DNA of 54,901 nucleotides, filler included, from Sluysia triapertura (GCA_046118255.1; 4 parts of 4 records of this genome joined end to end with filler, not necessarily neighbours in it); one strand, 5' to 3'; counted from the whole stretch's first letter, positions 1,756-49,340 are shown. Translations and numbers: made by a program. The notes: generated by a model not told the origin, from the letters alone.

Positions 1756-1804
1756 CCAATCAGAGCTTTCAAACAAAATATCGAATAATATTAGCTCTGA
1801 TTGG
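1756..1804. promoter_or_regulatory. Inverted pair of CCAAT boxes
   Basis: CCAATCAGAGCT (1756-1767) and its exact reverse complement AGCTCTGATTGG (1793-1804), about 250 bp upstream of the minus-strand ORF. Confidence 0.55.
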
Positions 1805-3039
1805 GTGGCTGTTGAAAATTAACAATTGACTAGTAAAGACAAAAATTAGATGTAGATAGCCATCATCAGTGTTGACAAGATACTGATAGTCATGATTAAA
1901 AACGTCAACAATGGTGATGGTAAATAAAGATTTTAATAATTAATTGATAATAATAATAAAAATAACAATATTGTTATTATTATTATTAATAAAACGAAAA
2001 AATGTAAAATGATACGTAAACTTTTTTAATGTCTTTTAAACAGTATTGTTTTCTTTATTCTTTTATTCTCAACATATAAAGAGGTAAAAAAATTAAACAT
2101 AAATTGATAAAGGTGAGTGAAATAGCAGCGATAACAGGATGTCTTATGCTCGAGTTATCGCTGTTATTTCACTATATAAAATTGAATTATTTAAAACTGG
2201 ATTCGATTTAGCTTAAATTCTTGAAAAGTTTTAGCATGTTGAAATGAATTAAAATGTATTTGAAACTAAATTACTGAGTAAGAATTGTTTGGAAAGAATT
2301 GATAAATATATTTAACCTTTGAAGATATAGTAATTTATATGAGTCTTGAAGTGAAATAAAGAATGTTAGAATAAGTTCTTCGATATTGATTGAAGTTTAT
2401 ATTTGAAAACAAGATTTATGTATTGAAATATCATGGTTAAAAGGCTTATTGAGAAGGTTGTAATTTAATGAATCTAAAAGAACAATTGCAATATGACTCT
2501 TTGTATATTTAAGATGTTATTATACTATGTTTTGTGTAATTAATTTGTTTGATGTTTTTGGTGTTGTTGTACTGTGTTGATGATGATTATGCATCGTTGA
2601 ATAGTGCATTTGAAATGTTGCAATTGATTCGAAAATGTGAAGTAGGTATTTTATATGTTTCCCGCATATTTGTTGAATTTATAGAATAGTGTTAAATGTA
2701 ATTGTGGTTTGTGTTATGAGTTTGTGATTGTGATTTAGTTTAAACAAATGAACTATTGAATAATTATTATTAAAATTTAAGTATTAATTGTTAAAGTGTA
2801 GTGTAAATGAAGGGTTCGAAAGTATTGAATAGATTATTTCGAATGTGTTGCTGGATCACCGTGAAAGTCGAGTACATGTTTTTGGTGGATTAGTTGGTGT
2901 AAATTGGTAGTGTTGAGTGTAATTGTGATTTAAATGTTGTGGAATTGAATATATGGTTGTTAAGGTATAATGAAAAGAGAAAGAATAAAAAAGGTATTAG
3001 TTTCTAATAGGATTTGGTGTTTGTCAAGGTTGGCCACTA
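1756..3039 (+). repeat. G+T-skewed non-coding cassette, copy A
   Basis: C-poor body without an ORF, ending TTGTCAAGGTTGGCCACTA. 2595-3039 aligns by eye with the reverse complement of 24593-25075; shorter blocks are shared with 44731-45446 and 48120-49340. Confidence 0.7.
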
Positions 3040-3585
3040 CAAAATTAATATAGATAAAGTAGGTTTTTGTGAATAACCTTTGAATGCGGAATGCTATGTT
3101 GAATTTCTAACTGTGTATGTATTTGTTTTGAAAAGACCTTTCGATGAAGGTATGATTTGACAAGCCTTATGTAAGACAAGCCTTAAAGTCAAATTTTAAT
3201 TAATTTTTAATTATGGAATGTCAAATTTTTTATGAATTAGATGATTTCTATGGAAAAGAAGAATTTATAAATGAGTTCGAAATGTTTGTAGAATGGTTCG
3301 TTTGAAAATAAGAACCTTAAAACATTTATCATTAGAAAATTGGGTGTGAAAATCAAAAATTAATTAAATAATAAAAGTTAAATTAAATTCATTATTTTTA
3401 TGTATGTTAATAATATTGTTGATTGTTATTTTAGTGTGGAAGTAATTTAAGTAAAAATAGATTGAGTAGAGTAAAAGGAAATGATGGTTGATAATAAATC
3501 AGATATCTATGTTTTGTACCTAATGAAGTTTCACAGATCGTACCATGTAATTGTCATAGTCGATCTGATTCTCAAAGAGGTTTGG

Positions 3586-3679
3586 ATGAGAGAGTGTTTG
3601 ATTGCGAAACTTAGGATTGATTGGATGATGAGAGAGTGTTTGATTGCGAAACTTAGGATTGATTGGATGATGAGAGAGT
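3586..3679. repeat. Perfect 42-bp tandem duplication (about 2.2 units)
   Basis: ATGAGAGAGTGTTTGATTGCGAAACTTAGGATTGATTGGATG at 3586 and 3628, partial at 3670. Confidence 0.95.
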
Positions 3680-3852
3680 ATAAAATAAAAATTTTTAAAA
3701 TTTCACAACACAATCACATTCGTAAAATCCTACCGACATTGAAGATCTATGCATATAGTAATATTTAGTTTATTAATACTTTTATCATTTTATTATTTTA
3801 AATAAAATAAAATAAATAAATAAGTTTTTGGGAAGTATCTCAATAATAGTCT

Positions 3853-45779: not shown

Positions 45780-46910
45780 AAAGGTTAAAGTTAAATTTAC
45801 TTTGATAAACGTGGATTCACGATAATATATTTCAGTACTTACTAATAATTCATCGATGAAACGAAATAATCGTTTAATGAAAGTCAACGAACTATAGGGT
45901 AAGTTTTATTGATCAAAATAGTATATTACAAAACAATTATAATATAGATATTATTAATCACGAAGTATACTATAAGATAATTTCAATCATTACAAGAATT
46001 ATAATACAATAGTGACTTTATATTGATTTTTTATCGAATTTGATTTTTAAAATGATTTAATAGTTATTTTAAACTAACTTAAATAAAAATATTTTAAGTG
46101 TGAGATTATTACTCCCGCAAATCAGCTGACCTACAATAAATTAACTTACAAAACTAATACAAAATTCAATGCACTGCTTGAATTATCCATTGTGGATTTG
46201 AGCAATTAAATGTATCTTTTAAAAATCGAAAAGTCACTTGAATTTTAATAAATACTAAAATCAATTAATAATTTTACTTTAATATTAAAAAATATTCCAA
46301 AAATATTTGACTAAATATTTCAGCTGTTATAAAGATATTAAAATTAATTAATTTTAACTTTATTATGATTTTTAACTAATTATTTATTTTTAATTTTAAA
46401 CTGATTTTAACTTTTAACTATAAATTTATAATTTTTTGACTTTACAATAACTTAAATTAATTGTGGATAATTATCTAAACATGCCAATGTTATTAGATAA
46501 ATCAATGAAATCTAAAGAAATGCAACTTGAATCGAAACTGATTTTGTCGAAACCGGTGTTGATACAGCGGTACCAGAATATAAAAATGAAATTAATAAAG
46601 CTTGACAGAAACAGGAAGTCCGAGAAACTATTCTATATAAGAAAGTAGCATTGCCAAAACATATTATTGTGTGTGTGTTGCTGAAATATCAATAATCAAA
46701 TACATATTCTGATGATCAGGAATTAACAAATTTGTAAAACCAATATTGTCACTTACTGATGAAGATTTTAGTGTCAGAACAAAAACTAGATATAAAATAA
46801 TTTTAATTTGATTAAGTCAGAATTGATACGAAATATTCATATCAAATTATACATTGTTACAGATGAGGACAAAGCAATCTTAGTTTGAAAGCACAAATTA
46901 TGTGGTATAT
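45780..46910 (+). mobile_element. Decayed Penelope-like element with hammerhead-like array
   Basis: VKFTL.. and KSTNYRVSFIDQNS resemble PLE RT thumb; LLDK...LESKLILSKPVL.Q resembles the GIY-YIG end; CTGATGA cores from 46709. Confidence 0.5.
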
Positions 46911-47638
46911 TCGTTTTTCCGAATATTGTTACTCCAGACTTACCACATAATCATTCACAGATTTTATCGTTAATGAAACAGTTATATCTAAATACTATTC
47001 CGTATTTTGCTCCTTATCTATGTGACATTTTCATTAAGATAAAGAATCATTTTATCTTTATTATTTCATATTCACTTGACCTTTCCTGAAATATCATTTT
47101 TATCTGAAAATATACTTTATCGAATCATAACTTTAACCATTCGAAAGCCATCAAATCTTTCAAATTTGAATAAATAAAATATCGAAAGTTTTGGAAAAAA
47201 TGCCTATAATTGTGATGCTGATTATTTTAATTATTAAAAGTTTGTTTAGAATTTATTAAATTTAATTTTATTTAAATTTTAATAACAATATATACAAATG
47301 GTTTTTATACATTACTATTAAAGTATTACTTTTAGAAATAATAAGTAATAAAATTTAATAAAAATTCGATGAATTCATTTTTGAAATCGAAGCTGATTAT
47401 AAAAGTAGATTTGAAATCAGCACAAATCAAAAAATAATAAGTAATTAAATTAAGAAGCTTGTGTTTAGTCTGATATTGTCAAAACTGTCATTATAAGCTG
47501 GAAGTTTACAGACATTTTCAGAAAACATTGAGATATTCGAATATCATTATAGAAAATTTTAGAAATAATAACTGATTTTAATTAGATTAAATAAAGACTT
47601 TATGAATTATTGTAATAATATTGTAAATAAAGTATTAA

Positions 47639-47680
47639 CCTCTCTGCCGCCGCTGGGACCAATTGGTCCCACAGGTATTT
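47639..47680 (+). mobile_element. piggyBac-like terminus (orphan)
   Basis: TTAA|CCTCTCTGCCGCC followed by the palindrome TGGGACCAATTGGTCCCA. Confidence 0.45.
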
Positions 47681-48119
47681 GTGCAAGTTTTAGAGGATTA
47701 AATAAGGACAATGTTTTGCATAATCGTTTCTGCTTTTAAAGTGTGTGCACAAAGTTATTTCAATAATATACCACCATTTTGTGTTAAAATATTTGAATAA
47801 AATAAAATAAGTGAAGATATTGTAATGTCTAAAGTTATTATTACTTTTGTTAGAAGATGGGCAGATTGCTTCAGAACATTCCAGACTATATTACACTTTG
47901 ATAGAGAATACCAAATTTACCAATTTTCATATTTTATGCTATTTTATTGGAAATTCATGAAAAATTATGATGTAAATGTAATCATAGCATACATAATTAC
48001 AATATAGAAAATAACAAATAAATAAAGCGGATAAAAATATAGCCAGAAATATTATATAGAATGTAATTAGGTATTATATGGAGTTAATATTTCATAGTAA
48101 GTACAGTATCTTAAGATTT

Positions 48120-49340
48120 TGGTAGCCAATCTATTATTTTTTCTTGACATAACATATTACAACATTTTACAACGCTTAATACCATCAAACATGTTAAACA
48201 TAAAATTTCATATCAATTTAAATACTCTTACATCTAAATCTTTTCATATTTCATCTCCTTTACTTCTAATAAAACCTCATTACAAATTTCTCAAAACATT
48301 TCTATTTCATACTTTATAACATTAAAATTACATTCACACACATTAAACTTTATTTAGAACATTTCAACACATATTTCACAGTATCAAAGTTACAATTACA
48401 TTTAAAACCATCAATTTACAATTTAAAGTTTATTTAAAACACCTCAATTCACAAGCTTACAATATCAAAATCATAATGATTCGCAAAGCCATCAATGTTT
48501 GCAGAAACGTCCTTTTAAAGTTATCTAAAATTATCTATATCTAAAAACTCTTCTAAAATATGTATAAAGGATTTTATAACAGTAGAATCACAATCACATC
48601 TTAAATTAACGAACAGACATCTTCAAATTAATTCAAAATATCTCAAATTCATAATCCTCATCATTCAATCCCTAATATTATTGAAAACATTAAATTAACA
48701 TTTTGAAACCATTTTAGACATTGCAATCGAAACAACATTCTTTAAACATTTTCGTATCGATCGTTTCTGTCAAACATTTTCTTATTATCTCCTCCATAAC
48801 TTATATCTTCGTATAAACCGAACAATCTCTTTTAAAGGAAATAAGAAACATAACAATGTTTCAAAAGCATTCGAAGAAAGAAATGAATTATCAATGAATA
48901 TAATCAACAAAGAAAAGAACTAGAAATAACTTTATTTGAAGTATTAAGCTAAAAGGATTTCATTTTAATCATATTTTTAAGAAATTTTAATATGTTAAGG
49001 AAATTGTACAGATTAATTAAAAGACGGATTGTGTTATGAGCATAAAGAAAAGAATTTATGTTTTAGTTAATTTATTATTATCATTATTTTATTTTACGCT
49101 TATTCAATTGTAATTATTTTATTATTATAACCAGCAATATTAACAATTAACCATATGACATGGTAACTATTTATTTAACCAAATTACATTTACCTGTCAC
49201 AATTTTAATTACCATTTTTGTCAGTATATAATCTAAATAGTGACAGGTATGCATTGAACCAACATGCTAATATTACTCTCGTGATTGGATATTCAATCAA
49301 ACTCATTCACGATGTTCCATTTTGATTGGGTACCTAATCA
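48120..49340 (-). repeat. G+T-skewed cassette, copy F
   Basis: Several CCAAT, AATGCATACCTGTCAC, TAGTTCTTTTCTTTGT, body, TTGGCTACCA on the minus strand. Confidence 0.75.

Follow-up and report, generated by a model that had tools for sequence, protein, structure and literature searches.

The window analyzed here is a 54,901-nucleotide stretch of DNA from Sluysia triapertura (GCA_046118255.1), in which four contigs (1-11828, 11929-26446, 26547-39758, and 39859-54901) are joined by N linkers, and all the results given below apply to this window and derive from its sequence alone. The genome is eukaryotic, with a GC content of about 25% and without CpG depletion, and the window contains retroelement remnants and gene fragments (gypsy-type RNase H, integrase, DDE_3 transposase, HECT, EF-hand, and GCP2). 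Among them lie tracts in which one strand is poor in C, four of which had been outlined in a preliminary description as the related units A, D, E, and F. The placement of these units, A on contig 1, D on contig 2, and E and F on contig 4, is the one first reported. The units are real, but what they have in common is a layout and not a single sequence family. Their features, together with the open reading frames (ORFs) that they face, are as follows.

3..1487, minus strand: orphan ORF of 495 aa, running off the contig, head-to-head with A; 0 matches in protein searches
1753..1807, plus strand: inverted repeat of A with a 15-bp stem and a 25-nt loop, its arms being the CCAATCAGAGC / GCTCTGATTGG pair (z -5.15, 0/200 shuffles)
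1859..1921, plus strand: second hairpin of the A head (z -4.0, 0/200 shuffles)
1943..1990, plus strand: third hairpin of the A head, inside the AAT-rich spacer (z -4.0, 0/200 shuffles)
2023..2071, plus strand: pyrimidine block of A, read from the sequence
2113..2177, plus strand: fourth hairpin of A, of pre-microRNA size, with a 20+3 bp stem and G:U pairs on the plus strand (z -6.7)
2221..3035, plus strand: C-poor body of A, with 2598-3039 homologous to D (HMM, skew, alignment)
3029..3039, plus strand: box GTTGGCCACTA of A, reversed CCAAC-type, internal to the skewed tract
3040..3703, plus strand: continuation of the A tract, ending 40 nt past a tandem 42-bp duplication that carries TGATTGG twice (3585-3679)
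24593..24603, minus strand: end box GTTGGCCACTA of D, where homology to A and skew both stop
24599..25070, minus strand: C-poor body of D, 78% identical to A 2598-3039
25321..25500, minus strand: putative separate head of D, with a hairpin, a CCAATAG box, and a borderline 21-nt match to the E head (21.9 bits, null maximum 20.5)
44211..44450, minus strand: degenerate calmodulin-like ORF, head-to-head with E
44729..44786, plus strand: CCAAT pair of E, an imperfect inverted repeat by eye (RNA fold not significant, z -0.33)
44798..44813, plus strand: E copy of the 16-nt E/F block AATGCATRCCTGTYAC
45120..45150, plus strand: E copy of the 31-nt E/F block, with AATAAA, TAG, and a U-rich run in that order (29.9 bits)
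45149..45441, plus strand: C-poor body of E (HMM, skew)
45436..45446, plus strand: end box GTTGGTCACCA of E
48120..48130, minus strand: end box ATTGGCTACCA of F, a full reversed CCAAT box
48126..48836, minus strand: C-poor body of F, its 5' part weakly homologous to E
48907..48937, minus strand: F copy of the 31-nt E/F block
49191..49255, minus strand: F copy of AATGCATRCCTGTYAC (49255-49240), continuing into the hairpin 49249-49191 (z -3.8)
49284..49329, minus strand: CCAATCA pair of F
49405..49474, minus strand: outer inverted repeat of F with TTGGCTGACC / ATTGGTCAGC boxes and CACGTG (z about -3.5)
49544..49903, plus strand: ORF head-to-head with F whose end resembles a degenerate CCCH zinc finger, a candidate only (score 0.80), with no Pfam or PDB support

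The tracts were called by a five-state hidden Markov model (HMM) whose emissions are derived from the tracts themselves. Nine C-poor tracts are detected, distributed over all four contigs and corresponding to 9.8% of the window, and none appears in four strand-randomized windows. Their length ranges from about 300 to 1500 bases, with a three- to sixfold G:C imbalance. For the bodies of the four units, the binomial p of the G over C excess is 1.7e-20 in A, 7e-18 in D, 3e-6 in E, and 4e-15 in F. Five further skewed tracts had been noted earlier, and all of them present the G over C excess (p 1e-3 to 1e-8), the HMM recovering three and missing those at 13200 and 46940; when these last two are added to the nine, the imbalance is observed in 11 of 11 intervals, with p from 2e-3 to 2e-20. 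The skew had been described as one of G and T, and its G part is strong in A, D, E, and F; the T part is weak, being A vs T imbalanced at p<0.05 in only 3 of the 11 tracts, and A exceeding T on the G-rich strand in E and in the 46940 tract. The tracts outside the four units are listed below.

6332..6719, minus strand: HMM tract, unrelated to the other tracts; CCAATAG 30 nt upstream, a hairpin, and a tRNA gene beyond
13200..13640, plus strand: weaker tract (G:C p 1.2e-3), missed by the HMM
18015..18578, minus strand: HMM tract, unrelated; A-rich spacer and a CCAATCA-bearing 26-bp hairpin at 18989-19044
27790..28493, minus strand: HMM tract, unrelated, new to this analysis; 312-bp direct repeat inside
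46940..47170, minus strand: weaker tract (G:C p 2.2e-3), missed by the HMM
53614..53818, plus strand: short HMM tract, new to this analysis, converging on 53819-54396; CCAATCG 382 nt upstream
53819..54396, minus strand: HMM tract, unrelated; its 5' part is the antisense of a serine/threonine-rich ORF (54226-54510, plus strand)

On the pooled G-rich strand, the composition is A 0.355, C 0.058, G 0.187, and T 0.40, against 0.367, 0.133, 0.133, and 0.367 outside the tracts. The depletion of C is about independent of sequence context, and the choice between G and A is not: the G/(A+G) ratio is 0.48 after T, 0.36 after C, 0.27 after A, and 0.21 after G, with background values of 0.31, 0.25, 0.23, and 0.27, respectively (chi-square p 4e-35). 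Moreover, the tracts are poor in GG, and the fourfold-degenerate sites of nine host-like ORFs show no skew at all (A161 T155 G46 C44).

Some local observations accompany these tracts. A sharp skew switch is found at 53818/53819, where two C-poor tracts of opposite strands meet head-on. The hairpin at 18989-19044 is the second strongest of the window, and its deviations from a perfect repeat are G:U-compatible on the plus strand, opposite to the nearby tract. The tRNA gene at 7049-7121 (plus strand; Arg(GCG) by ARAGORN, 50.8 bits in Rfam) is divergent to the 6332-6719 tract and is perhaps a pseudogene; its body looks to us like that of a tRNA-Cys with an expanded anticodon loop.

The layout of the heads, made up of CCAAT boxes, an A-rich spacer, and a pyrimidine block, can be recognized in A, E, and F, as had been reported. 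The variant CCAATC(A/G) has seven of its 14 sites in heads, which for this count represent 12% of the window (p 5e-4), and these seven sites, two in A, one in E, two in F, and one in each of the tracts at 18 and 53.6 kb, lie between 382 and 493 nt upstream of the tract starts; also, four of the seven CCAATAG occurrences fall in heads. In A, the CCAAT pair forms the two arms of the 15-bp inverted repeat, and four successive stem-loops of 48-65 nt each are contained within 430 nt (z -7.3, 0/100 shuffles), the last of them beginning at a splice-donor-like AAG/GTGAGT. In a scan of 5430 windows of 80 nt, where the head was taken as the 620 nt upstream of each tract (10% of the window), the heads contain 10 of the 22 strongest hairpins (permutation p 0.0002) and, without A, six of 18 (p 0.004); the 3' flanks contain three of the 22. 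For head hairpins at z<=-3.2, the best fold is on the G-rich strand in seven of 11 (A, F, D, and the 6.7-kb tract) plus one (28-kb tract) and on the other strand in two. On the other side of the CCAAT cluster, a divergent ORF is opposed to each of A, E, and F, its start being located about 700-900 nt from the tract start; the neighbor of F is a candidate only. Clustered CCAAT boxes, NF-Y-type by the consensus, are present between divergent units at these three loci, and in A, E, and the 6-kb tract the CCAAT pair coincides with a switch of the skew from C to G.

At the opposite end, the TTGGYYACYA motif occurs exactly four times in the window, at the ends already described for A, D, E, and F. 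Among random triples, one of 600 gives a match as good, and among composition-matched triples, 10 of 600 do so, although the three ends tested are not independent because E and F are related by descent. On the reverse strand, the end box reads TRGTRRCCAAY, where F has a full CCAAT and the three other units have the variant CCAAC, a CCAAT/CCAAC-type reading that follows from the NF-Y consensus. In D, E, and F, the skew comes to an end 3-4 nt past (A/G)TTGG. In A, which was said to end at the motif, it continues to 3703 and stops 40 nt after the TGATTGG pair. Also, a copy of the box with one mismatch, ATTGGCCGCTA, is found at 53228 in a head position.

The comparison of the bodies shows how far the units are related. 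In alignments of 55 pairs against 40 shuffles each, A-D reaches z 96 and E-F z 5.4, with four more pairs slightly above the shuffles (z 3.5-4.6), and under a composition-matched model A-D is the only one of 36 body pairs that exceeds all 30 controls. The idea of a multi-copy family of four related units is therefore retained for A-D and, weakly, for E-F, the other tracts being unrelated look-alikes. A 2598-3039 and D 25071-24593 are 78% identical over about 480 nt; their differences in 434 columns comprise 34 A/G, 10 C/T, and 16 transversions, and the indels break any frame. The A/G:C/T ratio is 3.4 vs about 1.8 expected for strand-symmetric change (hand-calculated, one-sided p ~0.04); as a weak hint, the asymmetry may have persisted after the duplication. 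E and F form a convergent pair separated by 2.7 kb, with weak body similarity at the 5' end and two common blocks, of 31 nt (28/31) and of 16 nt (14/16), in conserved order. The 31-nt block scores 29.9 bits vs a null maximum of 20.5 in 40 random pairs, and the maintenance of the order while the spacers differ suggests constraint on cis-elements. On the other hand, the motifs proposed as common to A and F are at chance level (18.8 bits vs a null maximum of 21.8), and GT(T/G)GTAAA is absent from A as it was written. Unit D had been regarded as keeping only the 3' part. The region upstream of it is indeed not homologous to the A head, but it has a CCAATAG box and a hairpin about 290-330 nt upstream, so D is perhaps not headless. 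Upstream of D, a degenerate tandem duplication of about 140 bp is seen by eye at 25445-25660, and short, locally duplicated filler occupies the 5' junction at 25066-25124, both being reminiscent of break-repair scars.

The tracts were also compared with known classes. The bodies lack an ORF, in agreement with the preliminary description, and a Pfam search of 48 frames read through stops gives no domain (best E 0.056). Neither codon nor purine three-periodicity is found in A, D, E, and F, which is a weak test because the GCP2 pseudogene used as control also fails. In Rfam, no family reaches the curated score except the tRNA at 7049, and no rRNA or tRNA match lies in the tracts. No long fold-back of the bodies is seen, eight of 10 G-rich strands being within 2 standard deviations of their shuffles; only A and F have bodies at z<-2, equally on both strands, and short local stems explain this. 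The earlier statement that terminal inverted repeats (TIRs), target-site duplications (TSDs), and poly(A) are missing is borne out in that no TSD abuts the D junctions or the D-like part of A and no poly(A) or simple-repeat tail follows the end boxes; for TIRs, it is limited to the five longest inverted repeats listed per region, none of which joins the ends. The CACTA at the end of A and D is shared sequence and not flank. The ends, being TTGGYYACYA, differ from the CTRR plus hairpin of Helitron 3' ends, and the 3' flanks of D, E, and F contain none of the top 22 hairpins, although 80-nt windows may miss very short stems. A codon-usage scan of low sensitivity, since it also missed the calmodulin-like and HECT fragments, finds no same-strand coding segment within ~1 kb past the tract ends. 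The tracts are also distinct from the CpG-island promoter class, with about 25% GC and a CpG observed/expected ratio of 1.03 outside and 1.06 inside. Where an RNA or transposon family could be tested, the tracts do not qualify as members, nor do they for the CpG-island class. Exact-pattern scans give 0 loci for the A/D block in metagenome and viral contigs and 0 loci for the E/F block in metagenome contigs.

Several compositional origins were considered and rejected. A tandem-repeat or telomere-like origin is disfavored by the absence of a strong common period and of any Tandem Repeats Finder array spanning a body, and a CpG-methylation or bisulfite-like origin by the remaining C, which has no CpG preference (3' G 0.20, equal to the G frequency). 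Repeat-induced point mutation has the opposite direction, being TG enriched and TA depleted here. An ADAR-like activity fits the order of 5' neighbors in part, but 3' G is disfavored and the A-D differences lack that context. Finally, the mitochondrial code of table 14 opens long frames in 1700-3700 only with TAA read as Tyr, with no protein recognizable by eye and a negative Pfam read-through.

Taken together, these data lead us to a tentative proposal, which we hold at somewhat less than an even chance: a full cassette would be the non-coding arm of a bidirectional CCAAT (NF-Y-type) RNA polymerase II (Pol II) promoter, with a protein-coding gene served, now or formerly, by the other arm, and its skew would arise by mutation of single-stranded DNA in R-loops. 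The geometry, the motifs, the composition, and the two duplicate pairs are observed; the steps of the mechanism would be the following. Transcription would start just inside the CCAAT cluster, the RNA-like strand being the G-rich one, and would proceed through the A-rich, hairpin-rich head of about 300-400 nt to the AATAAA / U-rich block, which resembles an early cleavage-polyadenylation signal. In shape, AATAAA..TAG followed by a U-rich run corresponds to a poly(A) signal plus its downstream element. Pol II would then continue through the body, where a G-rich and purine-rich RNA would favor an R-loop; the displaced strand would lose C by deamination, whereas the C of the template (G on the RNA-like strand) would be spared, and the skew would deepen. 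The second, reversed CCAAT/CCAAC-like box may mark the stop of the read-through or of the R-loop. Local duplication would occasionally spread the cassettes (A-D, E-F), and loci unrelated to one another would converge on the same composition; indeed, the near-identical composition of unrelated sequences argues for a process rather than for descent. The earlier proposal of a putative Pol II-type non-coding unit is supported on its anatomical side by CCAATC(A/G) at a fixed distance, the E/F blocks, the lack of an ORF or Pfam signal, and the divergent position of three of the four units.

This proposal has precedents. An excess of G and T on non-template strands has been attributed to deamination (PMC10030826), and GC-skew tracts from <300 to >700 bp at promoters and gene ends are reported to form R-loops whose displaced strand is prone to deamination, a reverse-skew promoter class being also described (PMC3787257). 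Skew has been linked with divergent transcription (PMC4617957), and a transcription-associated excess of C>T/G>A is reported at tRNA loci (PMC6130373). The G-quadruplex asymmetry described for telomeric retrotransposons (PMC10088271) is without bearing here because the tracts are GG-poor.

Nevertheless, several results weigh against the promoter-arm proposal. Given that the fourfold sites of coding genes are unskewed, ordinary transcription in this genome does not create the skew, and a locus-specific process must be assumed. By hand calculation, C>T plus A>G alone would bring the background to T ~0.44 and A 0.31, and the observed values are 0.40 and 0.355; simple deamination also leaves unexplained the preference for G after T and its avoidance after G, and the A-D differences do not show the after-T context (16/95 vs 12/104, p 0.31). 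With regard to the heads, CCAATC(A/G) is one of seven CCAAT patterns tried, in a head window set after inspection, and neither plain CCAAT (14/110, p 0.43) nor RRCCAAT (5/27, p 0.21) is enriched; the AATAAA counts of the spacers (3-5) are about those expected from A content; and no divergent gene is clearly seen at D or at the 18-kb tract. Regarding the ends, the closeness of the HMM boundary to TTGG in the units D, E, and F is due in part to the motif, which itself supplies the first C residues, and for five of the nine tracts TTGG is missing within 50 nt of the end.

A more ambitious version, which we regard as improbable, would take the tracts for a genome-wide set of promoter-gated, box-bounded cassettes producing a new kind of near three-letter (A, G, U) RNA, with a structured, processed head and a body that acts as a wobble guide or as a small-RNA source. 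The C-poor, UG-rich composition would come from a germline mutator that is targeted and dependent on context (C>T plus A>G following pyrimidines), and 3' modules would be exchanged, as A and D suggest. In another explanation, unlikely but worth retaining, the cassettes would be dedicated precursor genes of small RNAs, with clusters resembling primary microRNAs (pri-miRNAs) in the heads, precursors of Piwi-interacting or small interfering RNAs (piRNAs, siRNAs) in the bodies, and a composition selected for processing or loading. The four stem-loops of the A head and the 10 of 22 top hairpins held by the heads point in this direction, as does the hairpin 2113-2177, of pre-microRNA size (stem of ~20 bp or more, seen in A only), which fits a microRNA model better on the G-rich strand (34 bits) than on the other (26). 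The pseudogenes adjoining the units also resemble piRNA-cluster cargo. However, that score, 34.1 bits for mir-8536, is far under the gathering score of 100 (mir-367 gives 19.4 vs 54, and nothing is found in 44400-49700), no significant fold is obtained for the E head, CCAAT inverted repeats or AAT palindromes make up several of the stems, which can then be explained as DNA features, and the bodies are not long fold-backs and have no antisense target among the transposable elements (TEs) or genes of the window. Guide RNAs acting in trans by G:U-tolerant antisense pairing with mRNAs or TE RNAs, as the preliminary description also contemplated, are very doubtful. Wobble-tolerant drift would yield C-poor, G-rich strands, and a CCAAT head with a defined end suits a gene; nonetheless, with the tracts masked, a G:U-tolerant search of the non-tract window leaves eight of nine tracts within the range of eight Markov controls, the ninth matching an AAT microsatellite (a first search, with three controls only, had given several scores above them). 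Moreover, full A>G / C>T drift would predict, by the same hand calculation, more T and less A than observed, and neither purine three-periodicity nor a body fold-back is seen.

The possibility of old non-autonomous mobile elements, retroposed or similar to Helitrons/Helentrons, that go through a single-stranded stage, have origins rich in hairpins, and acquire their skew in copying, is rather unlikely. The A-D homology stops exactly at the end box, as it would at the boundary of a discrete element, D seems to have lost its 5' part and carries short local duplications where it joins the flank, and E and F adjoin different gene fragments, but the bodies are mostly unrelated, the skew of A runs past the box, and the terminal features sought (TSD at D, TIR among the inverted repeats listed, poly(A) tail, and top hairpins in the 3' flanks of D, E, and F, 0/22) are absent. 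It is quite improbable, too, that the bodies are G+U-rich outrons or first introns of downstream same-strand genes or, when reversed, long G-poor leaders of the neighboring gene. Donor-like sites at 2110 (plus strand) and 18463 (minus strand) and, by eye, AG-acceptor-like sites near the ends of the 6-kb and 28-kb tracts would fit, as would Ciona outrons, for which an elevated G+U content and a median length of about 458 bp are reported (PMC11155486). Against this, the low-sensitivity codon scan gives no same-strand coding segment in the ~1 kb downstream of the tract ends, and the ATG count on the C-rich strand (32 observed vs 33.1 expected) shows no depletion beyond composition. Promoter-associated replication origins, with inverted-repeat-rich starts and a one-sided strand-displacement tract, would account for the hairpin-rich heads and for the C-to-G switch described above for A, E, and the 6-kb tract, and R-loops are reported to be able to act as origins (PMC3787257); however, the tracts end sharply after 0.3-1.5 kb, and the far side of F has no reversed skew, which leaves this explanation a slim chance. 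Decayed protein-coding genes, mitochondrial insertions, or chance composition are scarcely credible. The window is filled with pseudogenes and one tract overlaps the antisense of the serine/threonine-rich ORF, but the read-through frames give no Pfam match better than that cited above, Rfam finds no rRNA or tRNA in the tracts, and the controls give 0 tracts, the origin from decayed known protein-coding families being already largely refuted.

The remainder of the window contains other decayed sequences. A pseudogene of GCP2 (gamma-tubulin complex component 2), without introns and interrupted by in-frame stops and a frameshift, lies at 21521-22143 on the plus strand; its scores, 42-48 bits vs five GCP2 chains and 15 bits vs yeast Spc97, are no more than a loose hint of an animal. 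A HECT-domain fragment (40007-40216, plus strand, Pfam E 6e-11) stands alone at its contig start, with 0 matches in a protein database search. At 34798-39366 on the minus strand, a broken gypsy-type pol (RNase H, integrase) is followed by several compact ORFs with transmembrane-like stretches, possibly accessory genes; protein searches with the RNase H gave distant plant/JGI matches only, and a 207-aa ORF among the compact ones has no Pfam or database match. A decayed long terminal repeat element at 8961-11430 (plus strand) has a primer-binding-site-like TGGCGCCCGAA, which we take to be of tRNA-Lys type, followed by broken gag-like ORFs. A 140-bp element at 23352-23491, similar to miniature inverted-repeat TEs, has the inverted ends TTAA-CCCTTTGAGTGCCAAC and, in our estimation, resembles piggyBac; another TTAA-CCTCT...AGAGG-A-TTAA element is located at ~47634-47700. 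A remnant of a Tc1/mariner-type DDE_3 transposase is found at 31754-31933 (plus strand, E 1e-5). The region 50200-53000 (minus strand) has raised GC, broken ORFs, and a weak C2H2 finger (E 0.0025), with the CCAAT box of 53228 just upstream; by its motifs we presume a decayed non-LTR retrotransposon, and no reverse transcriptase match was obtained in Pfam. Frameshifted or stop-interrupted ORFs rich in Asn, Ser, and Thr lie beside C-poor tracts at 27350-27800 and 54226-54899, both on the plus strand, and together with the remaining fragments they give the window the look of a compartment rich in pseudogenes.

About one-tenth of the window is therefore made of sharply bounded, G:C-imbalanced tracts, while the coding genes are unskewed and CpG is not depleted. 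If the tracts were R-loop or single-strand scars of promoter read-through, they would map hidden germline transcription from sequence and would offer a direct test of the mutational origin of promoter GC skew, free of the CpG-island and methylation context. If they instead gave processed RNAs, these would be an undescribed class of non-coding RNA in a lineage with almost no database relatives.

With respect to known systems, early poly(A) signals at bidirectional promoters are a trait of promoter upstream transcripts (PROMPTs) and upstream antisense RNAs. Like these, the cassettes stand head-to-head with a gene and have AATAAA and then a U-rich run a few hundred bases out; unlike them, they have conserved paralogous motif blocks, multiple hairpins, and an extremely C-poor tail. 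With pri-miRNA clusters and piRNA precursors, they share a predicted Pol II-type promoter, several stem-loops of 50-65 nt in A, and the lack of an ORF, but no family reaches its curated score (the nearest in Rfam being mir-8536), and E has no stems. Similarly, non-autonomous Helitron/Helentron elements are also non-coding, with hairpins, no TSD (here at D), and a defined end (here in one pair), and they differ by the CTRR end with an adjacent hairpin and because the bodies here are unrelated between units. In comparison with Ciona outrons as presented in PMC11155486, a G+U-rich region of about 450 nt downstream of a promoter is common to both, no downstream same-strand coding exon is found here, and the C depletion looks stronger, without a numerical comparison. 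In full-text literature, supplements aside, no description was found of a hairpin/CCAAT head combined with fixed spacing, extreme C loss, and a terminal box. The arrangement works like the known GC-skewed arms of divergent promoters, in a layout not found described. A further close case is that of human CpG-island GC-skew promoters, where a G over C skew of a few hundred to >700 bp by the promoter, divergent transcription, and a reverse skew upstream of the gene (class IV) are reported (PMC3787257, PMC4617957). Unlike in those promoters, the tracts of S. triapertura have about 25% GC, are not CpG-depleted, and are GG-poor instead of G-clustered; moreover, about 450 nt separate the boxes from the tract starts, and the tracts are directed away from the gene and often terminate in a defined box.

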